Source: Nanobdellota archaeon (GTDB lineage Archaea; Nanobdellota; Nanobdellia; Pacearchaeales; GW2011-AR1). Taken from it: a DNA stretch of 64,000 nucleotides. Shown here one piece after another: positions 1,037-60,897 of the stretch. The notes under the pieces were generated by a model. It had not been told where the DNA came from and did not search any database. It was given only the letters and a program-made list of their open reading frames with translations. The first letter of the stretch is position 1. Every line of letters begins with the position of its first letter. The DNA lies in NCBI GenBank assembly GCA_027334715.1, contig DAHWUG010000001.1, positions 107,158-171,157 of the forward strand. The letters are read 5' to 3'. Made by a program: the position numbers and the translations under genes.

Positions 1037-2191
1037 TTAATCTTCAAAGTTTATCACACCACCACCAAGTACTTTTGTTCCTTGATAAAGAACAGCTGCC
1101 TGACCTTCACTGACACCCGTGATGGGCTTGTTAAGGATGATTTTGTATTCTCCATTAGAATATTTTAACATAGAAGGAAGAAGTTCACCTACCTGGCGTA
1201 TTCTTGTTAAAACTTTAATTGACTTATTACCACCTACCAGACCGTGGGAACTACTTTTAACAGATGAACCTGCTTTAGATTTTTTTATTTTAGCTATAAA
1301 ATTCTTATCCATAAAATGAACATTTTTTATTGCAAATTCCTTTCTAAAAAGCAGCGAGTTGTTTTCTGGCGCTGCAATTATTACATTTGTTTTAGGGATT
1401 TTTTTAGCAACATACCAGCGTTTGACCTGTTTTTCATTTCCTTTATCAACTTCTATGCCAAATCTTGGACCTATTCTCTGGCCTATTGTGTAGTAAAAGA
1501 TTCCATCGTGCTCTCCGATTATTTTTCCCTCCGGATTCAGGATTTTTCCTTTTTTTGGCTTTATTTTCTGCTGAAGGAATTTTTTCAGGTTGATTTTGCC
1601 GACAAAGCAAATGCCAACTGTTGATTTTCTGTTGAAATTTGGAAATTTATTTTTCTTTGCTATTTCCCTTATTTGCTTCTTGGTATAACTGCCAACTGGA
1701 AATAATGAATGTTTTAAATCAGAAGAATTTAGTCTGTAAAGAAAATAAGACTGGTCCTTTGATTCATCCTTTGCCCTTAGCATTTCATTGTTTTTTATCC
1801 TGGCATAATGCCCTGTCGCAATAAAATCAGCACCAATTTTTTTTGCAGCCTGCCACAGAAGAGGAAACTTTACTTTTTGGTTGCAGTCTATGTCAGGATT
1901 TGGCGTAATTCCTTTTTTATACATGCTGAACATTGGTAAAATCACAGATTTCCTGTACTGCTTTTCAAAATCCAATGTTACAATAGGAATTTTTAGCTTG
2001 TTTGCAATTTTCATTGCCTCTTTTCTATCATCTTTCCACTGACAGTCTCCTGTAAGAAGATTTTTTGTGTCGCTCCAGTTTTTCATGAAAGCTCCGATTA
2101 ATTCATAACCTTGCTTTTTGAGAATAAGAGCTGCAACGCTGGAATCAACTCCGCCGGACATTGCCATTAGCACTTTTGGTTTTTGTTTCAT
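1037..2191 (-). CDS. mnmA: tRNA 2-thiouridylase MnmA (bacterial-type)
   Basis: PP-loop motif AMSGGVDSSVAA at the N-terminus; length and overall pattern match MnmA/TrmU. The track start at 2194 is TTG, and an ATG follows one codon downstream. Confidence 0.8.
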   Translation of the reverse strand: MKQKPKVLMAMSGGVDSSVAALILKKQGYELIGAFMKNWSDTKNLLTGDCQWKDDRKEAMKIANKLKIPIVTLDFEKQYRKSVILPMFSMYKKGITPNPDIDCNQKVKFPLLWQAAKKIGADFIATGHYARIKNNEMLRAKDESKDQSYFLYRLNSSDLKHSLFPVGSYTKKQIREIAKKNKFPNFNRKSTVGICFVGKINLKKFLQQKIKPKKGKILNPEGKIIGEHDGIFYYTIGQRIGPRFGIEVDKGNEKQVKRWYVAKKIPKTNVIIAAPENNSLLFRKEFAIKNVHFMDKNFIAKIKKSKAGSSVKSSSHGLVGGNKSIKVLTRIRQVGELLPSMLKYSNGEYKIILNKPITGVSEGQAAVLYQGTKVLGGGVINFED

Positions 2192-2241
2192 CAAAGAAAT
2201 AGCTGAAAGTTAGTTAAAAAAGTTTATGCAGCAAGAAATTA

Positions 2242-2511
2242 TTAAATTTTAGCGAGAATCATTTCTTCAAGCTTTTTTAATTCAAGAGGCCTGTCACCTT
2301 GGCACTCCAAATACAATTTAGAAAAATCAAATTCTGCCAATTTAAGCTGCCTTGTTAAGAAAGCTGATCTTTTTCTCAGGCTCTTTAGAAACCTTTGCCA
2401 GCCCGTATAATTTTTCCAGTCTGCCGTCTTTTGGCCTAAGCAAAAAGCATCTTTCTGTTTCCTGCTCTATTCAGGACCGGTAAATCGTTCAGCACCAAAA
2501 TCATTTTTCAT
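2242..2511 (-). pseudogene. 90-codon ORF (ATG to TAA) interrupted by a single in-frame TAG at codon 15
   Basis: Manual translation gives MKNDFGAERFTGPE*SRKQKDAFCLGQKTADWKNYTGWQRFLKSLRKRSAFLTRQLKLAEFDFSKLYLECQGDRPLELKKLEEMILAKI*. Absent from the ORF track because of the TAG at 2467-2469. Confidence 0.4.
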
Positions 2512-2549
2512 TTAAATTAATTTTTGTAGTGAAAAAACAGAAAAAGAAA

Positions 2550-2670
2550 CGCCCCAGGCAGGATTTGAACCTGCGACCCCATGGTTTCTGCTTTTCTCGC
2601 TGAATGAGAGGAAATGTTGATTTTCGTTCAGTAACAGCCATGTGCTCTAACCGGGCTGAGCTACCGGGGC
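2550..2670 (-). tRNA. tRNA-Asn (GTT) with 46-nt intron at 37/38
   Basis: The reverse complement folds as GCCCCGG TA GCTC AGCCCGGTTA GAGC A CATGG CTGTTA[46-nt intron]A CCATG GGGTC GCAGG TTCAAAT CCTGC CTGGGGC G. All stems pair, and the mature length is 75 nt. Confidence 0.8.
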
Positions 2671-2703
2671 ATGATTTTAAGAAAAGATAACTGTATTTAA
2701 AGG

Positions 2704-3231
2704 TTATTTCTTTTTTCTTTTTGGTTTTTTTACCGGCTTCAAGCCAAGATCCAACACCGGCTTTACCTGGTGCTTTTCAAGAAAAGTATAAACATTTGAC
2801 TGCTTTGACCCTTGAATAAGATAAATAAGCGCTTCCACTGCATTTTTTATGTATTCTGGATCGCCTATTATTCCAACATAATTTCCCTTAATCTCAAAAA
2901 AACATTTTGTAAGCTCGTGAAGAGCACGCAGGGTTTTTCCCCCTTTGCCGATAATTCTTGCCCTGACAACTTCAGGGTCTTTTCTTTTTGAATAATCTTT
3001 TATTTTCAGTGCTTCAAACATCAAATCTTCCTTCTTTATTAAAAGGGCTACAGAAAAAGGAAAACCGAAATCCAAGGCTTCAATTACTTTTTCCCCGACA
3101 TATTCATCTTCTGCCTTGCCGTCAACCACAACTTCATTTCCTTTGATGCTTATTTCCAGATTTAGACTTTTCTCAAGATTTTTTTTATTCTCTGTAATTC
3201 TTTGCACTTTATCGCAAAATAAATTTTCCAT
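2704..3231 (-). CDS. KH-domain RNA-binding protein (Dim2/Pno1-like)
   Basis: 175 aa with the KH signature IIGKGGKTLRAL. Its start overlaps the aIF-1A stop (ATGA), matching the conserved archaeal aIF1A-KH neighbourhood. Confidence 0.65.
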   Translation of the reverse strand: MENLFCDKVQRITENKKNLEKSLNLEISIKGNEVVVDGKAEDEYVGEKVIEALDFGFPFSVALLIKKEDLMFEALKIKDYSKRKDPEVVRARIIGKGGKTLRALHELTKCFFEIKGNYVGIIGDPEYIKNAVEALIYLIQGSKQSNVYTFLEKHQVKPVLDLGLKPVKKPKRKKK

Positions 3232-3551
3232 CAGAATTCAAGCATATCTTTTTTTAGATAGCCGTTATTTTTTAACCATTCTACCTGATTGGGACGATAT
3301 TTGAATATTACATCACCCTTGTCTTTGTCAAGCTCCCAAAGCTCAATTATTACGACATCTCCAGGGCGAAGCCACAACTCTCTTTTTAGCCTTCCAGGAA
3401 CACGGCAATTCCTTGTTTTTCCATCAAGGCAGCTGACAAGCATCTTATTTCCACCAAGTCTCTGTTCTATAACCCCCATTACTTCTTCTTTTCCATGAGG
3501 AAGTCTGACTCTTGTCACAATTTCTTCCTGATTCCCCTGATTTCTGTCCAT
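3231..3551 (-). CDS. eif1a: translation initiation factor aIF-1A
   Basis: 106 aa with an S1-like OB pattern: VIEQRLGGNKMLVSCLDGKTRNCRVPGRLKRELWLRPGDVVIIE. Confidence 0.85.
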   Translation of the reverse strand: MDRNQGNQEEIVTRVRLPHGKEEVMGVIEQRLGGNKMLVSCLDGKTRNCRVPGRLKRELWLRPGDVVIIELWELDKDKGDVIFKYRPNQVEWLKNNGYLKKDMLEF

Positions 3552-14043: not shown

Positions 14044-15471
14044 ATGGCAAAAACCAATGAAAAATTTTACATAACAACTGCAATAGACTATGTTAATGCA
14101 AAGCCACATGTTGGCCACGCATTCGAGAAAACAATAGCAGACGCTCTTGCCCGCTGGAATAAACTGAAGGGCAAAAAGGTATTTTTTCTGACAGGCGTTG
14201 ATGAAAACGCACAAAAAAATGTTCAGGCAGCTGAAAAAGCAGGAATTCCAGTGAAGCAGTTTGTGGACAAGAATACCGGATTTTTCATTGAACTCTGCAA
14301 AAAACTAGAAATAAATTATAATGACTTCATAAGAACTACTGCAAAAGAACATGCAATAATCGTGAAAGAAATAATAAAAAAGATAATTGATAAAGGAGAC
14401 ATATACAAATCAAATTATGAGGGCCTTTATTGCACAGGCTGCGAAGAATACAAGGCAGAGAATGACCTTGTAAACGGAAAATGCCCTGAGCATAACAAAG
14501 AGCCGGAATTCAGGAAAGAAGAGGCCTATTTTTTCAAATTGAGCAAATACCAAAAACAGCTTCTTAAGATAATCCCCAAATATGTTGTTCCTGAAAAAAG
14601 GGCCAATGAAGTTCTTGTAAGGGTGAGGGAAGGCCTTAATGATATATGCATAACAAGAAAGGATGCACAATGGGGCGTTGATTTTCCCGGAGAAAAAGGA
14701 TTCAAGGTCTGGGTGTGGATTGATGCCCTGATAAACTATATTTCAGGATTGAAAGAAAAAGAAAAAGAATACTGGCCTGCAGATGTTCATGTTGTAGGAA
14801 AAGGGATAAACTGGTTTCATTCTGTTATCTGGCCCGCACTACTTCTTTCAGCAGGGTACAGTCTTCCAAGAAGTTTGCTTGTTCATGGTTACCTGACTCT
14901 AAAAGGGGGAAAAATAAGCAAAAGCACAGGTAATGTAATCGACCCTGTTGCTCTTTTAGAAAAATATGACAGCGATTCTGTAAGATACTCTTTGCTCAGA
15001 TGCTCTGTATTTGAAGATTCTGATTACAGCGAAGAAATTCTAAGGGAAAGACACAACAACGAGCTTGCGAATAAACTTGGGAATTTAGTCAGCAGGGTTA
15101 CATCATTGGCTGAAAAATACGGAATAGAAAAGTCCGAGAATAAACTGATTAAAAAATTAAAGCTAAAGGAAATAGAAAAAAATATTGATGAATACTTCCT
15201 GGACAAAGCGCTTAGCGGGATATTTGCATTCATCGACATTTGCAATGAACATGTCCAGAAAAACAGGATATGGGAAACAGGAAACAAAAAACAGATTTAT
15301 GAGCTTTTAGACAGCATAAAGGCGATTGCAATCTTGCTGTGGCCGTTTATTCCCAAGGCAAGCGAGAAAATCGCGAAGAACCTTGGCATAGAGATAAAAT
15401 ACAAAGATATAAATCTGCCCCTGAAAATAAACAGGATAAAAAAGGCAGAAATCTTGTTCAGAAAAACATAG
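14044..15471 (+). CDS. metG: methionyl-tRNA synthetase, catalytic core only
   Basis: 475 aa. It has a HIGH-type motif (KPHVGHAF), a zinc knuckle (CTGCEEY...CPEH) and a KMSKS-type motif (KISKSTGN). The C-terminal tRNA-binding domain is absent. Confidence 0.9.
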   Translation: MAKTNEKFYITTAIDYVNAKPHVGHAFEKTIADALARWNKLKGKKVFFLTGVDENAQKNVQAAEKAGIPVKQFVDKNTGFFIELCKKLEINYNDFIRTTAKEHAIIVKEIIKKIIDKGDIYKSNYEGLYCTGCEEYKAENDLVNGKCPEHNKEPEFRKEEAYFFKLSKYQKQLLKIIPKYVVPEKRANEVLVRVREGLNDICITRKDAQWGVDFPGEKGFKVWVWIDALINYISGLKEKEKEYWPADVHVVGKGINWFHSVIWPALLLSAGYSLPRSLLVHGYLTLKGGKISKSTGNVIDPVALLEKYDSDSVRYSLLRCSVFEDSDYSEEILRERHNNELANKLGNLVSRVTSLAEKYGIEKSENKLIKKLKLKEIEKNIDEYFLDKALSGIFAFIDICNEHVQKNRIWETGNKKQIYELLDSIKAIAILLWPFIPKASEKIAKNLGIEIKYKDINLPLKINRIKKAEILFRKT

Positions 15472-15590
15472 GCTTAGCTCAAAATATTGGTTTCAACTTC
15501 ACTCATCCTTAGATTAAATTTTTATTTATCATCATAAAAATATTTAAATAAGCCTTTTCTTTATATTTAGAATAAGGAATCTGAAAAAAG

Positions 15591-16919
15591 ATGGTGAAGA
15601 AAAGAAATAAGAGGTTTAATCTTTCTAACAGGGCTCTTTACACATTTATAACATTTGGAATAATTATTATCTTGGCTGTCGGAATTTATGCTTTGACGCC
15701 AGGTGTTGCGCCAAATCCGGGGCATTTGATTACAGATGTTGCACCTCCCTCTAACTGTTCTTCTGGACAGTTTCTTCAGTTTAATGGAAGTAACTGGGAT
15801 TGCGCAAGCGTACAGCAGAGTTCTGTCCTGCAAGGAGGATTGAATGTGACTATTATACAACCTCCATCAGATGCAAGTTTTGTTAATTGGGTGCCAATTT
15901 TAGCAACAGTTGTAAATTATAGCCCTGTAAGTGTGCAATTTTATTTAGATGATTCTCCTTTAGGAAAATTCTTTACATCACCTCTTTATGCAATGGATTG
16001 GTTAAGCAATGAAACCCCTGACGGAAATCATACAATTTCTGTAACAGCAACTGACTCTTCTGGAAATCACGCAAGTGACAATGTTACAATATACTTACTG
16101 AACAACGCCTCAAAAAATATTTCTTCAGGATTTTTCTGCAATTATAATGGGGTTTGCGATGTTGGTGAAACCGCTTCCACGTGCGTAGACTGCATACCCC
16201 CTCAAACATCAGGATCATTATCAACATATTGTAATAATAATGGTTATTGTGAGCCGCAACTGGGAGAAAATTCTGTTAACTGTGGTGACTGTTACTCTTC
16301 TGGTTCAATTGGAGGTTCAGGTTGCTTCGTTCCTGGGACAGAAATTTCTACACCATCAGGAAAAGTTCCTATTCAGGACCTTAAATTAGGAGATGAAATC
16401 TTTTCAGTTAACACAAGCAGTAATAAACTTGTGCCTGAGAAAATATTATTCATTTACTCCATTCCTGCCGTGAAAACTATGAGGGTTGTTTTAAGTAGTG
16501 GAACAGTTTTAGTTGTAACACAAGAACATCCTTTTTATGACCCCCTGTCAAAAAGTTATAAACCAATAAAAGATTTTAAGCAAGGAGACAAAGTTCTTAT
16601 TTTCGAAAATTCAACTGCACAAGAATCAATAATAAGCTACATCGGATTCTTACCCTCATATGATGGACAGCCAGTGTATAACATGCATGTGAGCGGTCCA
16701 TTTCTCAACTTCCTCGCAGATAATGTTTTGGTTCATAATAAGGTAGCATATCCTACTGAAGGGGGAGTAAGTGGCAGTACTTCAGGAAGCGGCGGAGGTA
16801 ATGGAGGGGGAGGGGTTTGTTACTCTGTCCTTTTAGGTGGTGGAATACCTTGTAATGCTAATGTGTTTTTTCCTGGAAGTGCTATTTGTGCATCTGGAGA
16901 TATAATAACATGCTCATGA
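15591..16919 (+). CDS. secreted/anchored cysteine-rich surface protein with PNPGH module, Ig-like domain, CxxxGxC..GE...C..DC mini-repeats and an internal Hint domain
   Basis: 442 aa with an N-terminal basic stretch plus a TM segment (YTFITFGIIIILAVGIYA) and many N-x-S/T sequons. Domain motifs were read from the translation. Confidence 0.7.
   Translation: MVKKRNKRFNLSNRALYTFITFGIIIILAVGIYALTPGVAPNPGHLITDVAPPSNCSSGQFLQFNGSNWDCASVQQSSVLQGGLNVTIIQPPSDASFVNWVPILATVVNYSPVSVQFYLDDSPLGKFFTSPLYAMDWLSNETPDGNHTISVTATDSSGNHASDNVTIYLLNNASKNISSGFFCNYNGVCDVGETASTCVDCIPPQTSGSLSTYCNNNGYCEPQLGENSVNCGDCYSSGSIGGSGCFVPGTEISTPSGKVPIQDLKLGDEIFSVNTSSNKLVPEKILFIYSIPAVKTMRVVLSSGTVLVVTQEHPFYDPLSKSYKPIKDFKQGDKVLIFENSTAQESIISYIGFLPSYDGQPVYNMHVSGPFLNFLADNVLVHNKVAYPTEGGVSGSTSGSGGGNGGGGVCYSVLLGGGIPCNANVFFPGSAICASGDIITCS
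16323..16739 (+). other. Hint / bacterial-intein-like (BIL) autoprocessing domain, residues 245-383 of the 442-aa protein
   Basis: CFVPGTEI (Cys1, block A), VVTQEHPFY (TxxH, block B) and ADNVLVHN (block G, terminal HN). Residue +1 is Lys. There is no endonuclease insert. Confidence 0.65.
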
Positions 16920-16926
16920 TAAAAAA

Positions 16927-18777
16927 ATGAATAAACAAAAAAGTCAATTGCCAAGTATAAAAGAAATGAAAATAAAATTTACTCTATTAGATAAATTATT
17001 CTATACTTTTATAACTTTTTTAATATTCTTAGTTTTAGGTGTTGGCGTTTATGCTACATCTTTAACGCCGGGCCAGGCGCCTAATCCAGGGCATCTTATA
17101 ACAGAGATTGCCCCCCCTTCTCCTTGCTCTGCAGGTCAGTTTTTAGGTTGGAATGGAACCTTGTCTTCATGGTTTTGTGCTTTTGCACCTGCTTCGCTTA
17201 TAGTGTCGGTTAGCCCTTCACTAGGGGAACCTGTCTTAACCCCTGGAACAACGCCAAATCCTGGGCATATAATAACAGAAGTTGCGCCGCCTTCTTCTTG
17301 CCTTAATGGTCAATTCCTGCAGTTCAATAGCGCAACATGGGCATGCGCTTCCTTCGCCTCTTCTACAACGCTTTCTGCTCCACAAAATCTTACTGGTTTC
17401 TTTGACCAGTACCTTGTTAGGAACAATCTGGTGTGGCAGCCAGTTACAGGAGCTGCAGGATACAACTTTTACAGAAATGGAACTCTCTTTAAGAGTATAG
17501 GAAATTACACCTACTTTATTGACGATAATATCACAAAGGGCAGCACATACTCTTATACTGTTACTGCCTATGACCAGTATGGCGCTGAATCAGGACAGTC
17601 AAACTCGGTTACAATAAATGTGCCCATCAAGAGTACGACACCCCCAACAGTCAGCATAATAAACCCTGTGAGCGGCGCAAATCTAACTGTATCCTATGCG
17701 TATGGGAATCCTTCTGCTTACATGATTAATATAACGACCCAGACAACAAGTTACAACGGAATATCTTATGTCAATTTCTGGCTTGCTAATAGTTCTCTAC
17801 CAGATTTAAACTCCCAGAGTGTTTATATTGGGACTGCTTGGGGCAACAATCCCTCCCTTTACTGGAATGGTTTGAATGCTCCTAGCGGAAATTATAATCT
17901 TATTGCAGTTGCTTATGATATCTATGGCTATGTATCAAATTTGTCATACGTGACAATCCACATAACTGATGCATCTCCTTTCTGCCCATCATACTGCCCT
18001 GCCTCATGCATAACTGGTGTTTGCGCTGCGCCTTCAAATGGGACTTACAGCATCCCATTCTACTCGTTATGCACTGCAAATGGTGGAATCGTTTTCCCAA
18101 ATGACATATGCCAGTTAAATGATTCTTCATGCCCTCTTAATTGGATTGCAAACTGGAATTTCTCAGACTGGGCAACAACAACATCAAACACCTGTAATGG
18201 AGGCACTGCATATGGTGATTATGGACAAGTATGTACAGGGAATTCATGCACAACTGGCTCAGAACCTTGGAGCAATACCTACTCATATCCTATATCAAGC
18301 TGTAATTATAACTCTGCATATTCATATGCTACATCAGACCCTGCCTTATGCCCACAAGGTGGACAATGCACTGTTTGCGCTACAAACTCAACAACATGCT
18401 ATGCCAATATTGTGCAGGTAGGTTGCACTATTTATCCTACATCTCTGAGATGCACAAATGCAGGAGGTACATGGGACAGTCAGCATAATGTATGCCAGTT
18501 TGGGGGAAGTGCATGCCCTAGTGGATGGAATTTTGTCCCATCATGGACAACCACTATTCGTAATACATGCGATGGAACAAATGCCATAACATTAACAGGA
18601 GCAGCTACAGGGTGTTATGGAAACTCATGTACAACTGGATATCATGCCTGGAATAATCTTCCTACAGAATCCTGCAGCTATAATCAGTCTTATATAAATA
18701 ATGCTACTGGCGCCTGTTCTATTAATCAGCAATTTTGTTATGCTAACGTAACACAGGTCGGCTGCCTCCCTGCTTAA
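16927..18777 (+). CDS. secreted/anchored cysteine-rich surface protein (2 PNPGH modules, FN3, Ig-like, two ~105-120-aa Cys-rich repeats)
   Basis: 616 aa, starting 7 nt after the previous gene. The N-terminal YTFITF anchor is paralogous to the upstream gene. It has an FN3-like segment (APQNLTG...YSYTVTAYDQYGAESGQS) and an internal duplication ending CYAN(I/V)(V/T)QVGC. Confidence 0.7.
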   Translation: MNKQKSQLPSIKEMKIKFTLLDKLFYTFITFLIFLVLGVGVYATSLTPGQAPNPGHLITEIAPPSPCSAGQFLGWNGTLSSWFCAFAPASLIVSVSPSLGEPVLTPGTTPNPGHIITEVAPPSSCLNGQFLQFNSATWACASFASSTTLSAPQNLTGFFDQYLVRNNLVWQPVTGAAGYNFYRNGTLFKSIGNYTYFIDDNITKGSTYSYTVTAYDQYGAESGQSNSVTINVPIKSTTPPTVSIINPVSGANLTVSYAYGNPSAYMINITTQTTSYNGISYVNFWLANSSLPDLNSQSVYIGTAWGNNPSLYWNGLNAPSGNYNLIAVAYDIYGYVSNLSYVTIHITDASPFCPSYCPASCITGVCAAPSNGTYSIPFYSLCTANGGIVFPNDICQLNDSSCPLNWIANWNFSDWATTTSNTCNGGTAYGDYGQVCTGNSCTTGSEPWSNTYSYPISSCNYNSAYSYATSDPALCPQGGQCTVCATNSTTCYANIVQVGCTIYPTSLRCTNAGGTWDSQHNVCQFGGSACPSGWNFVPSWTTTIRNTCDGTNAITLTGAATGCYGNSCTTGYHAWNNLPTESCSYNQSYINNATGACSINQQFCYANVTQVGCLPA

Positions 18778-18910
18778 TCAGATTTTTGGGAAGACTTAAC
18801 TGACAAGAACATATTTTAATAATATGATAGTTTGTGTAATCTATTAGATAAAGTTAATATTACAATAATAGAATATGGACTTGCTGTCATATAAAAAAGA
18901 AGATTAATTT

Positions 18911-19252
18911 TTATCTCACCCTGCTTCCTAATTCAATATCCTTTTCCGGCTGCAGCAGGAAAACATCTCTTTCATCTGAAGAAACAGCTGCAAGAAGCAT
19001 TCCTTGACTTTCAATTCCCTTTAACTTTCTTGGTTCAAGGTTTGTGAATACAATTATTGTTTTTCCTTTTAACTCTTCTTTTTTGTAATGCTTCTTTATT
19101 CCTGCAACAAGCGTTCTTTTTCCCAGCTCTTTGCCCAAATCAATTGAAAGCTTGTAAAGCTTGTCAGCTTTGTCTATTTCTTCAACATCAAGGATTTTTG
19201 CCGTTCGCAGGTCAATTTTCTGCCATTCTGAAAAGGGAATTATCTCTGCCAT
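18911..19252 (-). CDS. stand-alone tRNA-binding domain protein (Trbp111/EMAPII/MetRS C-terminal-like)
   Basis: 113 aa. The pattern F..IDLR.AKIL.VE.I..ADKLYKL.IDLG.E..RTLVAGI...Y..EEL.GK..IV..NL.PRKL.G..S.GMLLAA is the OB-fold tRNA-binding domain. Confidence 0.75.
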   Translation of the reverse strand: MAEIIPFSEWQKIDLRTAKILDVEEIDKADKLYKLSIDLGKELGKRTLVAGIKKHYKKEELKGKTIIVFTNLEPRKLKGIESQGMLLAAVSSDERDVFLLQPEKDIELGSRVR

Positions 19253-39230: not shown

Positions 39231-39860
39231 TCAGTTCTCATGGCAAAATCCTCTTTCTGAAGCAGGATTCTGCCAGTCGTAAAATATGAGCTTTACCCAT
39301 CCAAGATATGGGGCAATTTTCAATGCAGCTTTCCCAACAATTTGATTTCCTGTTATTCCGTTTTCAAAGCTTAGCTGGCCGTTGTTGTTGTCCCCCTCTG
39401 TCGAAAATGTTCTCTGTCCATTCACTTCAGTTATGTTAATGACTCTATGAATTATTGGATTTGCCTGACCTGCATTAAATATAATAATATCCCCGATTTT
39501 AATCTTTGAAGGATCTGCATGAACTATGAAAAGAATATCCCCCTTGTTAAAACCGTTTTTTAGTGGAAAACTCTGAAAATCAAGCTTGTTTATTATGTAA
39601 GGAGCATATTTTTCCTCATGTCTTGCCCACCACTCATCAAAATTGCTGAACAGATTACCCTGATGATACATACTGCAGGATTCAACAATTGCCAAAGGCA
39701 TAGAGGTTCCTGCAACAATGCTTAATCCAGGAAAAAAAATGAATTTTATAAAAATGAAAAGAAAAATCAGGGAGAATATCCACCCCTTTAGGCTATCATC
39801 CTTCCAGAGAAGGAACCAGAACTTATTCCAATAATATCTGAACCCCTTTTCCGAAGCCAT
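39231..39860 (-). CDS. signal peptidase I (archaeal/eukaryotic Sec11 type)
   Basis: 209 aa with an N-terminal TM, a VESCSMYH segment (Ser box), GDIIIF, IIHRVI (His box) and TEGDNN. Confidence 0.65.
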   Translation of the reverse strand: MASEKGFRYYWNKFWFLLWKDDSLKGWIFSLIFLFIFIKFIFFPGLSIVAGTSMPLAIVESCSMYHQGNLFSNFDEWWARHEEKYAPYIINKLDFQSFPLKNGFNKGDILFIVHADPSKIKIGDIIIFNAGQANPIIHRVINITEVNGQRTFSTEGDNNNGQLSFENGITGNQIVGKAALKIAPYLGWVKLIFYDWQNPASERGFCHEN

Positions 39861-49910: not shown

Positions 49911-52900
49911 TTAAAAATCTCCAAGCTTTGTCTGCTTTTTTCCTGTAATCATTTCGTGGATATTTATGTTGAAGACCTGAAGAATATTTTCAACTGCAGG
50001 CAGAATTTGCTTGTTCAAATAATATTCAATATTGTATTCCCCCTTTTCATCAGGAAGCTTTACTTTTTCACGAACTAATTTCTTTTTTTCTCTTGTCTCT
50101 GCTATGAAATATTCAATAAGATTGCCACTGCCTATCGGAATTTCTTTTTCCCGCATTTTTTGCGCTGCAATTACATGAGGAGAAATTGCCTTATACTCTG
50201 CCAATGGCTTTTGCAGCATCGTCTTGATTATAATTTCCTCTCTCTGCACCTTTCTTTGTTTCAAGTCCTGAATAACTTTTTTTATGAAATTTAAAGCCCT
50301 TTGTTCATTTCCGTCCTGCAAAACCATGCGAATAACCTCATTCTGCGTTTTTCTTGCAAGCTGGCACCAGTCGCGCCTTACCGTTTCGAAACCACGGATT
50401 TTTAGTTTGTTATCTTTTCCAAGAAGAGCATATTTCTTTTTTGCCCCTAAACCACCTGCTCTTTTTGTTACCCACAAACCCCTAGTGAAGAAACCTTCAA
50501 GCTCAAGATCCATTATTCCAGGAAGTTCTGAATTAAGCCTTTCAAGAAGTTTTTTTGCCTGCTCTTCTGTATGATTTTCAAGAAGGAAAGCTATGCTGTC
50601 TGTGTTGTGAACTAAAACATAATTAGCAAAAAATCTATGGTTATCTTCTACTTCTATATCATAAACATATCCCCTATTATTTATCTCTTCAATTTTTTTA
50701 ACCCCCTGTAAATCAAATTCGAAACCACTTATAGATTTTTTTCTATAACTCTTGGTTTTTATTTGAGATAACTTATTTTTTCTGTCTAAAACAAAGCCAA
50801 TTTTCTTACAAAATGACACTTTATCCTTAATAATCAGATTTATGGAATTACTTCCTGAAGAGTATACCTTTCCTTTAGACTTATACCTGTTATCAGAGTT
50901 TTCCCTAAATGTAGAATTGGATATCCCCAATTTAAACAATAATTTTCTAACTTCTTTAACATACTTTTCATTGATAGAAGTATATTTTATAATTGGAGTA
51001 TTATTTCTCATCATCACGGTTCCGTCAGCAGAAAATAACCCCCTCAAGAAAGAACCAACATTCTCCTCTTTATCATAGAATAACCACCCAGGTATGGATT
51101 TTTTGGAGCTATCATCCACAAACTCCTTTGATATAATATTAACAATTTTTAAGCCATTAGTGGTTATATCCCCTTTTCTTGTTTTGCTCAACCAATAGTT
51201 CTTAATATACCCCATTTTCTGCAGTGGTTTGATTAATTTCTTTATTAATTCTTCTTTATCTGATCCAAGAGAAAGACGCAAGTAATAATCTTTTTTATAT
51301 TTTTGATAAAACCTGTTTCTCATAAAACTTCCATCTCCAATAAAATATCCTGCAAATTCATAAACTTCTTTAGGGTAATTTTTAGATTTTTGAGAATTAA
51401 CTGGAATGTTCTTTAAAGAAATAATGCTATTTGCCCTCTTCTTTATCTCTTCTGGTTTTATTTCAATAAGCCTATTCATAGGATTAGTTTTATTATTCTT
51501 TGATTGATTAAAATTTACTGCTTGATAACCAATTAATGAATGATCTTCAGTGACATCAATATGCCAATTATTAGTAAAGTGAACCCTAAACATCCTTTTA
51601 TTAGACTTATGACGCATGACATATTTTATTGGGCTAAATACTGATTTACCCTTAGCATCAATTGTTAAAACTTCAGCGTCTTTTATGAGATTATACTCTT
51701 TATCAACTCTTTTATTATAAATTTTCTTAAAAAGATTTTCTATATTCTCTTCATAAACCTGATTATCTTTTCTTAATATTACCTTTGTATCCCCGCTAAC
51801 GCTATCAGAGTATATTACTTTGTAGCCGCTCTTGTCTATTTTCTCTATTGAATCCCTTATTGATTTTCTTGCAAAGGCAGCTGTTGCAGCAGCAGCTTCT
51901 CTTGAATAATATCTTGCCCCGAAAAATCCCTGATATCCATAGGAAGCGTTTGCCAAGAGCTTGAATGCATTGCTTCTTGCACGCTTGATTACATCTGGCT
52001 TTTTTTTCAGCTCTTCCTTGAACTTTTTCCTCTTTTCAATTATTTCCTTAAGCATTTCCGGGAAAAATCCGGGCTTTTTTGTAAAGGAAACTTTTTTACC
52101 CTGTATTTCTATGCTGTAAGAATTTTTATCGTCCTTTTCTTTTTCAAGGAATGTAGACTTTGACAGATTAAAAGTTACTATAGTGCTTCCATAGCTGGAT
52201 GTGAAATCGAAAACAGAGATATTTTCATACAATCCGGGAGTTGGCTCAAAAACAAATGCACCTTCATACTTTTCCTTACTTCTTCTCTCCCCTATTTCAT
52301 CATTTGTCGGCCTTTTTTCAGGTATCTCATTGAATTTTTCAAGATTGTGCAGGATAAAAGATTCCACATTTTTTGACATTCCGTTTCTTGTCACTTCTGA
52401 TGTTGGCTCGTGCATTACTCTGCTGAATTCAAGAATATCTGGCCACATTTTTTCAAATAGTTCATAAACAAGAACAGAATCATGAAGGTTGTATTCAAAA
52501 TAACTTTCCCAGTTTGAATCAGTGAGTTTTGAGGAATGCTGATGCTTGAACTGCTTTTTTTCATCGCCAAGAAATTCATGAGCAACCTCATTTAAGGATA
52601 AAGTTTCTGACTGCATGTACTGGGAGTAAGCTGTTCTTATGAATTTCAATAAATCAACATGAACAATTCCCTTTGTTTTTGCGGAAATTTCAAATCCACG
52701 AGAAAAACGGGGTTGTGTTGAATCAAGACCAATTGAAAGCCTTATATTATTCTTCTCTGCGCGCATTTTCATATACGGAAGGTCAAAGCCATCTGAGAAA
52801 TATCCAACAAGGAAATCAGGAGAAAGCTTTTTTACATATTCAAGGAATTTTTCTATCAAATCAGCCTCATCCTTTACATATTCAAGAAAATCAAGATTTT

Positions 52901-53582
52901 TTTCACTGGTTTTTGGCTTTTTCCATGTGATGACTTTTTTGAAATTGTCTGAAACAAGGGAAACCATCAAAATTTCCCCCTCTCCAAGCTTTATGTCATC
53001 TGTTTCAATGTCATATGCCATTACCTTTGGCTTGAATTCAATTTCATCCTCAATTTTTTTTGTGGAATCAATCTTAATGCAGAAATCAACATCAAGATTT
53101 GAATCAACACCACCAAAATCCATGGAATTGTTCAGAACTTCTCCTGAAATTTTGTACCACTGCAATGGATTTATCTTTTTCTCAATTATGTAGTGTGTGT
53201 CAAAACCAAGATCATAACCTCTTCTGCACTGTATTTCCGGAAAATCAAGCCTGTCTGCAACATCATGAAGATCTTTGTAGTTTGTGGCAAAAATTTTGAG
53301 TGCTTTTACCTTTTTGTCAAGGAAGTTTTTTTCATGCAATTCAACGCCTTCCACCTTTGTTTTTCTGCCTTTAAGGTCAAGCTCAATATCCTTTATCTTT
53401 TCAATAAGCCTGTTTATCTTTTCAGAGCTAACTCCTTCCTTGATGATTGCCCAAAGATAAACAGGGCAAGTGTCAATAAGGCAAATTCTCTGGTTTTTGC
53501 TGTTTCTTCCGAAGATTTTGATATAATTCCTGTCTTCAAAGTCAAAATGGTCATAGTCTACTGGAATAAAATCTGTTTCCAT
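49911..53582 (-). CDS. polB: family B DNA polymerase (PolB), interrupted by an intein
   Basis: 1223 aa. It has an Exo I motif (AYDIETD), Exo II (YFSDGFDLPY), Pol motif A (VFDFTSSYGS), motif B (KLLANASYGY) and motif C (YSD|TDS), which is split by the intein. The extein is 823 aa. Confidence 0.95.
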   Translation of the reverse strand: METDFIPVDYDHFDFEDRNYIKIFGRNSKNQRICLIDTCPVYLWAIIKEGVSSEKINRLIEKIKDIELDLKGRKTKVEGVELHEKNFLDKKVKALKIFATNYKDLHDVADRLDFPEIQCRRGYDLGFDTHYIIEKKINPLQWYKISGEVLNNSMDFGGVDSNLDVDFCIKIDSTKKIEDEIEFKPKVMAYDIETDDIKLGEGEILMVSLVSDNFKKVITWKKPKTSEKNLDFLEYVKDEADLIEKFLEYVKKLSPDFLVGYFSDGFDLPYMKMRAEKNNIRLSIGLDSTQPRFSRGFEISAKTKGIVHVDLLKFIRTAYSQYMQSETLSLNEVAHEFLGDEKKQFKHQHSSKLTDSNWESYFEYNLHDSVLVYELFEKMWPDILEFSRVMHEPTSEVTRNGMSKNVESFILHNLEKFNEIPEKRPTNDEIGERRSKEKYEGAFVFEPTPGLYENISVFDFTSSYGSTIVTFNLSKSTFLEKEKDDKNSYSIEIQGKKVSFTKKPGFFPEMLKEIIEKRKKFKEELKKKPDVIKRARSNAFKLLANASYGYQGFFGARYYSREAAAATAAFARKSIRDSIEKIDKSGYKVIYSDSVSGDTKVILRKDNQVYEENIENLFKKIYNKRVDKEYNLIKDAEVLTIDAKGKSVFSPIKYVMRHKSNKRMFRVHFTNNWHIDVTEDHSLIGYQAVNFNQSKNNKTNPMNRLIEIKPEEIKKRANSIISLKNIPVNSQKSKNYPKEVYEFAGYFIGDGSFMRNRFYQKYKKDYYLRLSLGSDKEELIKKLIKPLQKMGYIKNYWLSKTRKGDITTNGLKIVNIISKEFVDDSSKKSIPGWLFYDKEENVGSFLRGLFSADGTVMMRNNTPIIKYTSINEKYVKEVRKLLFKLGISNSTFRENSDNRYKSKGKVYSSGSNSINLIIKDKVSFCKKIGFVLDRKNKLSQIKTKSYRKKSISGFEFDLQGVKKIEEINNRGYVYDIEVEDNHRFFANYVLVHNTDSIAFLLENHTEEQAKKLLERLNSELPGIMDLELEGFFTRGLWVTKRAGGLGAKKKYALLGKDNKLKIRGFETVRRDWCQLARKTQNEVIRMVLQDGNEQRALNFIKKVIQDLKQRKVQREEIIIKTMLQKPLAEYKAISPHVIAAQKMREKEIPIGSGNLIEYFIAETREKKKLVREKVKLPDEKGEYNIEYYLNKQILPAVENILQVFNINIHEMITGKKQTKLGDF
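50604..51803 (-). mobile_element. 400-aa LAGLIDADG intein in PolB motif C (residues 594-993)
   Basis: The N-junction is VIYSD|SVSGDTKVIL, block B is VTEDHSL, the LAGLIDADG motifs are FAGYFIGDGSF and FLRGLFSADGTV, and the C-junction is YVLVHN|TDSIAF. Coordinates were checked against the DNA codons. Confidence 0.85.
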
Positions 53583-58473: not shown

Positions 58474-60897
58474 TTACAGCTTCTTCTCTGCCTTTACCGC
58501 AGTAGGAGCTTCTCCTCCATGCCAGGTGAATCTTGGGCGAACACGAATTGGATAAAGCCTTTCTGAGTTGTCGTCAAGAAGAACAGCGCTCCCCTTCAAA
58601 GAGGGAAGGTCGTCCATCTGCTTTTTTATGCTTTCAAGAACATAAGATTGCATTATGTAATTCAGTGCCTCTACATCCGGCTTTGATGTAACCCTATGCG
58701 CGATGACAATGTCCGATTGCGTCATTACATCATGATGTATTTGTCCTGGCTGCTGTGTTGCAAGAACAAGCGAAATCCCTGGCTGCCTTCCTTCTCTTAA
58801 AAGCTGGATTAAAGCATCTGTTGCAACTGTTTTTCCGTTCAATGGGAGAAATTCATGGGCTTCATCAATAAAAATCCAGACAAGCGGATTGTCTTTTTTT
58901 ATGCTTCTTGAAAGGTAATCGAGTCCCTGGGCAACTGATTCCGTCTCTTCCTCTTTTCTTGAATCCATTCTCTGGCTGAAGATTTTTCTGCAGAGAAGGC
59001 TTATTGCCAAAGCGCGGATATTAAAAACACCGACAGAATTGTAAACGCTTAAGTCAAGCACTGTTGTTATTCCTGCTGAAACCAATTGCTCAACTTTTGT
59101 GGCTTCTCCCCCTTTTTTTGCAAAGATTCCCCATGTATTTGCAGCTTCAAAAAGTCCGATTGCAGCGTTTTTTATTTCCTGGGGAGTTTTTTCATCTGAA
59201 TTCAATGCATCAAGAATATCATCAAGGTCATATTTTCCCTGCTCTTTTAATTTAGTAAGAACTCTTTGTATAATAATTGAAACAGGATTAATCAGCTCAA
59301 GACCAAAAGTAAGAATCCAGTCTTCAGGATTCAGCTCATTAACATCCAGGGCAAAAGTTTCATCTGCAGGAATCCCTTTTTCAAGATAAGAGTCATAATG
59401 TCCAAAAGGAACAAATATTTTTACAGGAAGATTTTTTTGCTTTAAATCCCATTCTGTCAGCAAATCCTTGTCCTTTTCATTTTTGAATTTCATTGTCCAA
59501 TAAATTCCCATTGTGTCAAAAATAAGAGAGCCTATGTTTTGGCTTGCCTCTTTTGGAAGAGAAGAAAGTTCTTCTGCTATAACCCCAAGGGTGTATGATT
59601 TTCCACTATTATGTGAAATTATTCCATTTGCAATGAAAGAATGATTTTTATCAACTGTTAAATCATAAACCTCTTCAATATTCTGTAAAAAAGAAATTTT
59701 TTTTATCTTTTTGCATACCAAACTTTCATCAATATAACAGGTTCTTCTTTTCCCCATATTATTAGCCTTATGGTTGTTTAATCTATCCTGTTTAAATTTA
59801 ATTATGCTCCCTATTCCCTTAAATTTTTCAATTGAATTATTGTCTGTTATAAATAACCTGTAACTTTCAAATTTCTTTCCATTTACTTTAGATATTTTTA
59901 ACCTTATTGACGATTCTATTCCAAAGTGAGTCAATAATAATTGCAAATCCTGTAAAAATTCTCTGGATTTTGAACTATAATCAATATATCTTCCTTTTTG
60001 AGGTATATAGCAATCACAAGAAAATAAGGCATTAATAAAATGGGACTTAAATTCATTAGAACTCTCAAATACTATTCTTGGAACCCTAATAATAGCCGAT
60101 TTATTTCCTTCTGGAACACCAAAGGAAATTAGTTTATTTACAACTGGTTGATGTAAAATCTGAACTACTTCACAATTGCAATCATTTCTTAAATATCTTT
60201 TTGCATAAACATTAAATTCCTGCTCAAAATCCTCTTTTGCCTGTGATAGGACTTCATTATCAGCATTGAATATTCTTATTCTTGCTTTTGTACCATTATA
60301 CAAATAGCCTCTTCCGTCTTTCCATATCCCTTTTCTAATTCTTATATTCCCATCAGCGAGTATATAACCTAATAATCTTGCTATTCTTAGGCTTTCTTTA
60401 CCTTTTTTAATCTCAGGCAATCCTAAAGGAAGAACTATTTTATCCCCAACTTTTAATTCTTCCCCGCCCCTCCAAAAAATATATTTTCCATAAGATGCAA
60501 GTAAGGGATGTTCTTTTGTAATTACTATCTCCCTTCCATCATCAAGTTCTATTTTTAAAAGCTCTTCATTCTTAATGGGATATTTTAAAAGTTTAGCATT
60601 TTCCAATTCAAAGTTCTTTTTGTCTTTGTTAAAAGATAATATCTTATCTTCTTTTTCATTAAAATCTTTTATTTTTTTATATCCTTTATCTGTAAATACT
60701 AACGTGTTCCCCTCAAGGCATCCCCTTTTTCCGGCAACCAGAATGACATGGGAACGGGCAACGTCCATGAAAATTTTGTTGCTTAAAGAAGTGTACTGCC
60801 CCATTTTCACGTAACCCTTTCCAATATACACAAGACCGCGATTTCCAAATGCCTTTTTGTCAGAAGCATCCCTTCCAACTGTTATATCATAACCCAT
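58474..60897 (-). CDS. HerA/FtsK-like (DUF87, COG0433-type) P-loop ATPase, interrupted by an intein
   Basis: 807 aa. The Walker A motif VAGKRG|SGKSYT is split by the intein. It has Walker B (VWIFIDEAHEF) and LREGRQPGISLVLATQQPGQI...SDIVIAHRV, which is typical of HerA-like ATPases. The extein is 436 aa. Confidence 0.75.
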   Translation of the reverse strand: MGYDITVGRDASDKKAFGNRGLVYIGKGYVKMGQYTSLSNKIFMDVARSHVILVAGKRGCLEGNTLVFTDKGYKKIKDFNEKEDKILSFNKDKKNFELENAKLLKYPIKNEELLKIELDDGREIVITKEHPLLASYGKYIFWRGGEELKVGDKIVLPLGLPEIKKGKESLRIARLLGYILADGNIRIRKGIWKDGRGYLYNGTKARIRIFNADNEVLSQAKEDFEQEFNVYAKRYLRNDCNCEVVQILHQPVVNKLISFGVPEGNKSAIIRVPRIVFESSNEFKSHFINALFSCDCYIPQKGRYIDYSSKSREFLQDLQLLLTHFGIESSIRLKISKVNGKKFESYRLFITDNNSIEKFKGIGSIIKFKQDRLNNHKANNMGKRRTCYIDESLVCKKIKKISFLQNIEEVYDLTVDKNHSFIANGIISHNSGKSYTLGVIAEELSSLPKEASQNIGSLIFDTMGIYWTMKFKNEKDKDLLTEWDLKQKNLPVKIFVPFGHYDSYLEKGIPADETFALDVNELNPEDWILTFGLELINPVSIIIQRVLTKLKEQGKYDLDDILDALNSDEKTPQEIKNAAIGLFEAANTWGIFAKKGGEATKVEQLVSAGITTVLDLSVYNSVGVFNIRALAISLLCRKIFSQRMDSRKEEETESVAQGLDYLSRSIKKDNPLVWIFIDEAHEFLPLNGKTVATDALIQLLREGRQPGISLVLATQQPGQIHHDVMTQSDIVIAHRVTSKPDVEALNYIMQSYVLESIKKQMDDLPSLKGSAVLLDDNSERLYPIRVRPRFTWHGGEAPTAVKAEKKL
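59608..60720 (-). mobile_element. 371-aa LAGLIDADG intein in the Walker A loop of the HerA-like ATPase (residues 60-430)
   Basis: The N-junction is AGKRG|CLEGNTLVFT, block B is ITKEHPL, the LAGLIDADG motifs are LLGYILADGNI and FINALFSCDCYI, and the C-junction is GIISHN|SGKSYT. Coordinates were checked against the DNA codons. Confidence 0.85.

Follow-up and report, generated by a model that had tools for sequence, protein, structure and literature searches.

Pilins, phage fibers, and polymorphic surface proteins already provide examples of variable adhesin cargo behind a constant N-terminus. Type IV pilus tip adhesins (the PilV shufflon and archaeal pilins with class III signals) join a constant hydrophobic N-terminus to exchangeable C-terminal binding domains, and phage receptor-binding proteins and tail fibers, including those with Peptidase_S74, exchange modular cargo behind a conserved N-terminal attachment part. 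In Rhs/contact-dependent inhibition (CDI)-type C-terminal displacement and other polymorphic surface loci, the locus stays fixed with a conserved 5′ part, the cargo on the 3′ side is exchanged between close relatives, and homology breaks off where the constant part ends. Conserved specialized signal peptides, namely YSIRK-G/S and KxYKxGKxW in Gram-positives and ESPR in autotransporters, show motif conservation beyond the needs of Sec and are common to many unrelated surface proteins. Here, we describe a locus that resembles these systems in each of these respects: two adjacent genes at positions 15,591 to 18,777 of a 64,000-nucleotide stretch of contig DAHWUG010000001.1, from a Nanobdellota archaeon. 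We refer to the whole of this stretch as the window.

Gene 1 (15591-16919, + strand) encodes 442 amino acids (aa) and gene 2 (16927-18777, +) encodes 616, with a possible alternative start at Met14, position 16966. The original prediction, made from the letters of the window, had described them as two open reading frames (ORFs) 7 nt apart, and that is indeed the distance from the gene 1 stop to the gene 2 start; so short a gap between two genes on the + strand suggests co-transcription. We hold with moderate confidence, on the strength of sequence comparison, that they encode exported, variable, adhesin-like surface proteins belonging to a large unnamed family of Pacearchaeota and Woesearchaeota, lineages of the DPANN archaea. 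Their leader differs from the specialized signal peptides listed above in its motif (SNR-x-LYT...GVYA), in being archaeal, and in being followed by a conserved mature head, which consists of a PNPGH motif and a putative disulfide hairpin.

The leader and PNPGH head

Gene 1 opens with a leader (aa 1-34; 15591..15692, +) in which a K/R-rich n-region containing SNR-x-LYT is followed by a hydrophobic helix of 19 residues (predicted by AlphaFold2 at 14-34) and an I-Y-A end. Behind it lies the head module (aa 35-72; 15693..15806, +), in which a Pro-rich LTPGVAPNPGH linker leads into CxxGQxLxFxGxxWxC. The latter is predicted to form a β-hairpin of ~16 residues, with strands at 60-64 and 69-73, and its two invariant Cys would close the hairpin by a disulfide. 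Gene 2 has one copy of the module at aa 47-85 (17065..17181, +) and a second copy, this one without a leader, at aa 105-141 (17239..17349, +), which our own-genome profile matched with E 1.3e-18. The distribution given in the original prediction, once in gene 1 (15696-15806) and twice in gene 2, agrees exactly with the translations, and all three copies fit the pattern TPGxxPNPGH(L/I)IT(D/E)(V/I)APPSxCxxGQFLx(F/W)N...WxCA.

The similarity between these copies is far beyond chance, as is that between the two Cys-rich repeats at the end of gene 2. By BLASTP, the leader plus module of gene 1 matches that of gene 2 with E 9e-24 and the second module of gene 2 with E 9e-18, and the Cys-rich repeats match one another with E 4e-17. 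The duplications must nevertheless be old, because the module copies are only ~70% identical at the DNA level and a search for DNA-level repeats within the locus detected none. The same low DNA identity rules out recent gene conversion among the module copies.

Close relatives are metagenome-assembled genomes (MAGs) of Pacearchaeota and Woesearchaeota. The gene 1 ortholog P0003 is 77% identical, with a ratio of nonsynonymous to synonymous substitution (dN/dS) of 0.13; within gene 1, this ratio is lowest in the head module, at 0.06. A partial gene 2 ortholog (P0158) is 84% identical over 205 aa. It can be noted that the first module of this partial protein (L043, 2765-3388) has PNPGE in place of the otherwise invariant PNPGH; its second module keeps PNPGH.

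How widespread is this element? In word-based homology searches, gene 1 had 13 relatives and gene 2 had 3, and almost all of the matches covered the first ~75 residues only. We therefore turn to a profile of 12 sequences of leader plus module (A1), which was run against 1.84 billion cluster representatives and matched 2045 protein clusters at E≤1e-3 (646 at E≤1e-10). On our own proteins, the profile scores E 3.6e-43 for gene 1 and E 4.8e-35 for gene 2, and both carry the family signature: the SNR-x-LYT ... GVYA leader, LTPGxxPNPGH, and CxxGQxLxWxGxxWxC. The pair of genes singled out by the original prediction is thus real, but it is no isolated novelty; the two belong to a family that numbers at least 2045 clusters.

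The element starts at residue 1 in 134 of the top 150 A1 matches (median length 192 aa), and these 134 leader-bearing members are the basis of all column and cargo statistics that follow. In the leader, N13 is present in 125 members, R/K14 in 133, Y17 in 131, T18 in 110, V32 in 115, and A34 in 127. In the head, P41 and P43 are each present in 131, and G44, H45, and C56 are invariant (134). The second Cys, C71, is found in 133 of 134, the remaining one being a gap, and is invariant in a second alignment.

The original prediction could place neither the PNPGH module nor the Cys-rich repeat in a named family, and neither can we. Nothing significant was found for either in Pfam, NCBIfam, PHROGs, or the PDB sequences, and the leader/head region, searched by sequence and by profile, matched no entry in Pfam, NCBIfam, or PDB; the modules accordingly do not map to any well-characterized family or solved structure. 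In the literature on DPANN and Pacearchaeota surface proteins, we found no description of a PNPGH-leader family, and the string "PNPGH" returned unrelated antimicrobial peptides only. The named genome records that contain the element are MAGs of Pacearchaeota, Woesearchaeota, and Nanoarchaeota. As for the phyletic distribution of the module, which had been proposed as a check, 27 of 401 genomes of the phylum have an A1 match, and most occurrences of the full module are in the window's own family; elsewhere, the leader and a GH motif are retained (e.g., YAFGTSxPxVFGHSAEEI) but the sequence then continues differently.

What follows the head is very diverse. Only ~20 of the 134 representatives have a Pfam domain there (Gly_rich_2, Peptidase_S74, Big_7, Hint, TSP1, Shufflon_N, Fibrinogen_C, and H_lectin were found), and the remainder have short Cys-rich sequences. 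Comparison of the family members shows the cargo to be interchangeable behind a constant head. The hairpin half, CxxGQxLxWxGxxWxC, is also used on its own: giant proteins of 1000-4700 aa (P0016, P0017, P0018, and others) repeat it 10-32 times, as CxxGQxLxWNGxxWxC, in a region outside Pfam coverage, and one of them, P0017, ends in a proprotein-convertase P domain. Tandem pairs and triplets of family genes are common (two to three each in L028, L026, and L023). In one genome of the same family, seven family-related small genes (~90-215 aa, Cys-rich) lie in a single tandem cluster (L006; G363:C4:12740-15908).

Export and the fate of the leader

Several features of the two proteins support their being exported and extracytoplasmic. 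By Kyte-Doolittle hydropathy, each has one hydrophobic segment, N-terminal and preceded by a K/R-rich start; by the positive-inside rule, this would put the bulk of each protein outside. Their Cys content lies at the 97th (gene 1) and 99th (gene 2) percentile of the genome's ORFs, and their density of N-x-S/T sequons is near the 95th. The Cys count is even in 121 of the 134 family representatives, as expected for disulfide-bonded extracytoplasmic proteins.

The shared, paralogous N-terminus had originally been called an anchor. That it is shared is clear; it may act as an anchor, or it may instead be a specialized signal peptide that is cleaved. Its end, G-V-Y-A, has Ala at position -1 in 127 of 134 representatives and V, I, or A at position -3 in 132, and an archaeal signal peptidase I gene is present in the window itself (39285-39554, - strand; TIGR02228, 70.9 bits). 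Retention or a special role is favored by the h-region, which is long (~19 residues) and conserved position by position.

A conserved cleavage site of the signal peptidase I type after Y-A, with the enzyme at hand, is also what one would expect if the proteins were soluble, released products, such as lectin-like scavengers or signaling proteins, and not retained by the cell. Searches of gene 1 and gene 2 for a C-terminal anchor or archaeosortase signal (Pfam, NCBIfam, and hydropathy) found none, which also fits release. We consider release quite improbable all the same: the first 40 mature residues (PNPGH and hairpin) are extremely conserved in front of unrelated cargo, for which a common docking or retention role is the best explanation, and a stalk-like FN3/Ig architecture suggests attachment to the surface. 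In the gene 1 tail, a search for PGF-CTERM or another C-terminal sorting signal gave no family match, and there is no hydrophobic segment beyond the N-terminus.

The leader also invites comparison with type IV pilins, and the proteins could be divergent pilin-like subunits with an unusual class III leader, the helix being built into a filament and the cargo serving as pilus-tip adhesins in the manner of PilV. The hydrophobic helix is strongly conserved, small paralogs of ~190 aa occur in tandem arrays (seven in G363 and two to three each in L028, L026, and L023), one family member has a Shufflon_N domain, the genome encodes an A24 prepilin peptidase, and the tip domain of gene 2, described below, is also carried by genuine archaeal and bacterial pilin-like proteins. 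However, the leader matches neither TIGR02537 nor a Pfam pilin model, while the genome's true pilin-like protein does have such a match. In addition, the residue at -1 of a class III site must be G, A, or S, whereas column 15 of the family, which follows the conserved N-R/K, varies: W, L, and F are the three most frequent residues, and A, V, I, G, and T are found as well. Finally, the small-x-small V-Y-A is conserved at the C-terminal end of the helix, which is where signal peptidase I cuts. A class III pilin signal can be set aside for gene 1 on the first two of these grounds, and at the locus we saw none of the recombinase or inverted repeats of a shufflon. Pilin-like assembly of the family as a whole strikes us as unlikely.

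A slot between MetRS and a tRNA-binding protein

Returning to variable, adhesin-like surface proteins, we find the most direct view of their variability in the position of the locus. It sits between the MetRS gene (14044..15471, +, 475 aa), the left border of a variable slot, and a gene for a stand-alone tRNA-binding (Trbp111-like) protein (18911..19252, -), the right border, whose blastn identity to relatives is 73-78%; PF01588 was found in the syntenic tRNA-binding-protein gene of L044. The conserved order is MetRS, family gene(s), tRNA-binding protein, MinD-like ... NAC. The two flanking genes, on the + and - strands, respectively, enclose the slot in all relatives in which both flanks are seen, and it is the middle that varies.

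The slot holds two family genes in this genome. In G281, of the same genus, it holds a single gene of 405 aa, whose central domain is different and whose Cys-rich unit is partial; in G368, also of the same genus, one tail-fiber-like gene with an S74 chaperone (PHROG E 5.6e-22); and in L044, three tandem family genes. In L043, two small inserted genes precede the orthologs of gene 1 and gene 2 (77% and 84% identity); this contig ends inside the gene 2 ortholog, so that the slot is seen from the MetRS side only. The inserts themselves (L043, 451-1223) lie between MetRS and the gene 1 ortholog. One encodes 188 aa; the other encodes 69 aa and matches DUF8150 weakly, and together they may form a toxin-antitoxin-like pair.

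Comparison with G281 by blastn shows where homology stops. Identity is 68% through MetRS and 75% through 15586-15807, which is exactly the leader plus module; no homology is found across the cargo, and it resumes at 18903 with 78%. Among close relatives, family members are thus replaced or multiplied at one fixed position, this slot, and the shared handle of leader plus module marks the boundary of DNA homology. In Rhs/CDI-type loci, by contrast, orphan cargo cassettes and immunity genes would accompany such a boundary, and none are present here; moreover, what is duplicated or replaced in this slot is whole genes with their own leader. A diversity-generating retroelement (DGR) is ruled out as the source of variation: the genome has no RVT_1/reverse transcriptase, and the locus has no near-identical DNA repeats of the template/variable (TR/VR) type.

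Could these be the receptor-binding (tail-fiber) genes of an integrated or degraded DPANN virus, instead of genes for cellular surface proteins? Some family members are tail-fiber-like, with an S74 chaperone or tail-collar-like motifs, a tail-fiber homolog is the allele in the same slot of a relative (G368, above), and phage receptor-binding proteins typically swap their cargo while the N-terminus stays constant. Nevertheless, we regard this as extremely improbable. In the relatives compared, MetRS and the tRNA-binding-protein gene enclose the locus, and no other viral gene is nearby; gene 1 and gene 2 have no tail-fiber PHROG match, and their cargo is not tail-fiber-like; the N-terminal hydrophobic leader points to cellular export; and the genome is without a reverse transcriptase or DGR. 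Given the housekeeping flanks and the missing tail PHROG match, we reject a prophage origin.

Two further points concern the locus as a whole. An A/T-rich stretch at 15536..15572 (+), read from the sequence only, has TATA-like boxes TTTAAATA and TTTATATTTA 20-50 nt 5′ of the gene 1 start and is a possible archaeal promoter for both genes. The original prediction had also called the locus by far the largest non-housekeeping investment in the window; this holds, because every other ORF of ≥380 aa in the window is housekeeping (replication or translation).

Cargo of the two genes

Gene 2 runs from the leader through two head modules, an FN3-like segment, an Ig-like segment, and a Cys cluster to two Cys-rich tip domains. 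The middle segments had been proposed before, and for them we can offer weak matches only. The FN3-like segment (~aa 150-236; 17374..17634, +) matches phrog_1696, a phage FN3-like tail family, with E 1.2e-5, PDB entry 8pn5 with E 0.0025, and RGI_lyase with 16 bits, and its pattern, W..V.GA.GY..YRNG...Y.Y.V.A.D, is typical of FN3 domains. The Ig-like segment (~aa 240-345; 17644..17961, +) scores 16.4 bits with Big_7, below the cut-off of 24.1.

The two tandem Cys-rich repeats of gene 2 lie where they had been placed, and both have GNSCTTG and a terminal CYAN(I/V)xQVGC. Copy 1 (18070..18426, +) has 119 aa and 12 Cys; copy 2 (18451..18765, +) has 105 aa and 10 Cys and is the copy that was modeled. 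The AlphaFold2 model, from an 8-row alignment (A5), has a short helix and eight strands, with a mean pLDDT of 88.3 and a pTM of 0.72. Structure prediction was among the checks first suggested for this repeat, and the outcome is a confident model to which Foldseek finds nothing significant in PDB (best E 0.21, TM <0.3) or BFVD (best E 0.13). A profile of the domain has no match among the PDB sequences either. A contig scan with a 3-row alignment found no relative, and a metagenome scan found 2 only.

The domain is terminal in six of seven carriers (gene 2, P0006, P0007, P0047, P0067, and P0015), as it is in ORFs of L029 and L032, and internal in one, a 550-aa protein of G066. Three kinds of N-terminus precede it. 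P0006, P0007, P0047, P0067, and the L029 ORF have the PNPGH leader at the front and the tip domain at the C-terminus. A protein of ~580 aa from our own genome (C2:218510-220273, ~48.7 kb past the window end) ends in a third copy, and its N-terminus passes the TIGR02537 archaellin/type IV pilin model (24.7 bits, cut-off 20); in the bacterial carrier, P0015, the upstream sequence gives a G|FGLME prepilin site. Lastly, a TSP1 protein of G005 with a Sec signal has the domain at its C-terminus. Because it is distal on stalks, behind three N-terminal devices, and in two domains of life, the domain is most likely a distal adhesive tip. The L032 region (2016-3372), next to a PBP1A-type gene in a bacterial context like that of the candidate phyla radiation (CPR), is an analogue of this architecture; it has the tip domain, a hydrophobic N-terminus, the AWSAPSSAPTGGNVAIPIN motif, and tail-fiber-like NVGIG repeats, and may be split into two ORFs.

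Gene 1 has a quite different cargo: behind the leader and PNPGH module come a Big_7 Ig domain, two Cys mini-repeats, a Hint domain, and a 59-aa tail. The Ig-like domain (aa 86-151; 15846..16043, +) passes PF17957 with 25.1 bits against a cut-off of 24.1. The two CxxNGxCxxGExxxxCxDC mini-repeats (aa 183-234; 16137..16292, +) were read from the translation; a Pfam search of them gave no match, and all of their Cys are kept in P0003.

The Hint domain (aa 245-383; 16323..16739, +; 139 aa) does not figure in the original description. It is bacterial intein-like (BIL) of the A type. BILs have been described as domains of bacterial proteins, and the A type is defined by an N-terminal Cys, TxxH, a His-Asn end, and no +1 nucleophile (PMC7765530). 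The gene 1 domain has Cys245, T310-Q-E-H313 (TxxH), and H382-N383, followed by Lys384 (VLVHN|K), and has no homing endonuclease insert; Cys245, T310xxH313, and H382-N383 are all kept in P0003. It matches PT-HINT (PF07591) with 28.7 bits against a cut-off of 27.7, and Hint_2, Hint, and Intein_splicing as well. Among solved structures, its best relative by phmmer is 2lwy_A, the Clostridium thermocellum BIL (E 2.8e-6, end to end over aa 245-383), and Foldseek on the model places 2lwy and 6tmm (Tetrahymena BUBL BIL2) first, with probability 1.0, and then mini-inteins. By sequence and by fold, this is an A-type BIL of the Hint superfamily. It is like other BIL domains (2LWY, PT-HINT) in its length of ~139 aa, its catalytic residues, its lack of an endonuclease, and its place in a variable secreted protein; it differs in its DPANN archaeal host and in having downstream a 59-aa Cys peptide, not a toxin or other large domain.

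Full inteins with LAGLIDADG are present elsewhere in the window, in the family B DNA polymerase (49911-53582, -) and a HerA-like ATPase (58474-60897, -). These true inteins end in HN|T and HN|S, whereas the gene 1 domain ends in HN|K. A canonical intein is ruled out by this Lys at +1 and by the host, a variable exported protein.

By analogy with characterized BILs, the domain would be expected to generate a thioester at Gly244-Cys245 and to cut at Asn383, thereby detaching or processing the conserved Cys tail. The tail (59 aa; 16740..16916, +), aligned with that of P0003, consists of an unconstrained Gly-rich linker and then a conserved 33-aa four-Cys peptide, CYSVLLGGGIPCNANVFFPGSAICASGDIITCS (aa 410-442), with a dN/dS of 0.135 and all four Cys kept in the ortholog.

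A released tail of this kind brings polymorphic toxins to mind. Gene 1 could be an effector whose pretoxin-HINT frees a C-terminal toxic or antimicrobial peptide, with gene 2 as an accessory or delivery partner; PT-HINT passes its Pfam cut-off, the tail behind the Hint domain, hydrophobic and Gly-rich, is conserved and presumably disulfide-bonded, and the locus is variable as toxin loci are. Two defining features of a polymorphic toxin system fail, however. The tail has only 59 aa and matches no toxin family in Pfam or NCBIfam, and no small immunity gene lies 3′ of gene 1, the next gene being its 616-aa exported paralog. Furthermore, the Hint domain is carried by only 2 of the 134 family representatives and is therefore not the logic of the family. 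We judge such an effector highly improbable.

Taken as variable, adhesin-like surface proteins, gene 1 and gene 2 might work as follows. The leader would carry each protein through Sec across the membrane, N-in and C-out, after which it would either stay as a signal-anchor or be cut by signal peptidase I after Y-A. If it is cut, the conserved head would become the new N-terminus and hold the protein on the envelope. The cargo behind the head, mostly disulfide-rich and glycosylatable, would provide binding modules for contact between cells or with a substrate. Gene 2 would be a long stalk (second head module, FN3-like, Ig-like) ending in two ~110-aa five-disulfide β-domains, and gene 1 would present an Ig domain, two small Cys knots, and the A-type BIL Hint domain. 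Contact with a host or another cell in a DPANN-like organism was also the role first proposed for the locus. The DPANN affiliation is borne out by the Pacearchaeota and Woesearchaeota relatives and the exported look by the features described above; "host contact" is read from the architecture.

It is important to remember the points that weigh against this account. Expression, surface location, binding, glycosylation, and autoprocessing are predictions from sequences and models. The full-length gene 1 model is poor outside the Hint domain (pLDDT 53.6, and ~25 in the tail). Conservation of the leader goes far beyond that of ordinary signal peptides, and its dN/dS (0.12) is no higher than that of the mature part; it may therefore have another role, for example in dedicated sorting or pilin-like assembly. 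The tip domain is rare (4 of 401 genomes of the phylum), and "adhesive" is taken only from its position, as there is no known fold relative in PDB or BFVD.

A more ambitious scheme would join a DPANN-specific sorting/docking leader-head, a covalently ligating BIL "harpoon," and a host-recognizing tip of new fold. In it, the leader and PNPGH hairpin may have a dedicated partner for processing or attachment and may serve the cell to display contact proteins from a repertoire that can be exchanged rapidly; the gene 1 BIL thioester may go beyond self-cleavage and ligate the exposed ectodomain, or else the Cys tail, to a nucleophile of the cell's own envelope or of the host cell, for which thioester-domain adhesins and Tetrahymena BUBL BIL-mediated conjugation are analogues; and the tip domain may recognize a host-surface ligand and be common to DPANN archaea and CPR-type bacteria through horizontal transfer. 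That all of this holds together is rather unlikely.

DPANN archaea such as Pacearchaeota are attached to or dependent on other cells, yet their contact molecules are almost entirely unknown and most of their surface proteins unannotated. Against this background, the more informative results are a large unannotated leader/head family, a cassette-like turnover of cargo at a fixed locus, a new-looking tip domain, and an archaeal extracellular BIL. A short conserved N-terminal signature picks out some two thousand clusters of candidate contact proteins, and the slot between MetRS and the tRNA-binding protein is a concrete site at which to follow the turnover of the repertoire among sister species. 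The tip domain is compact, confidently modeled, without a structural relative in PDB or BFVD, and common to archaeal and bacterial pilin-like proteins. Finally, with its BIL-type Hint domain, the exported archaeal protein encoded by gene 1 is a rare candidate for extracellular protein autoprocessing.

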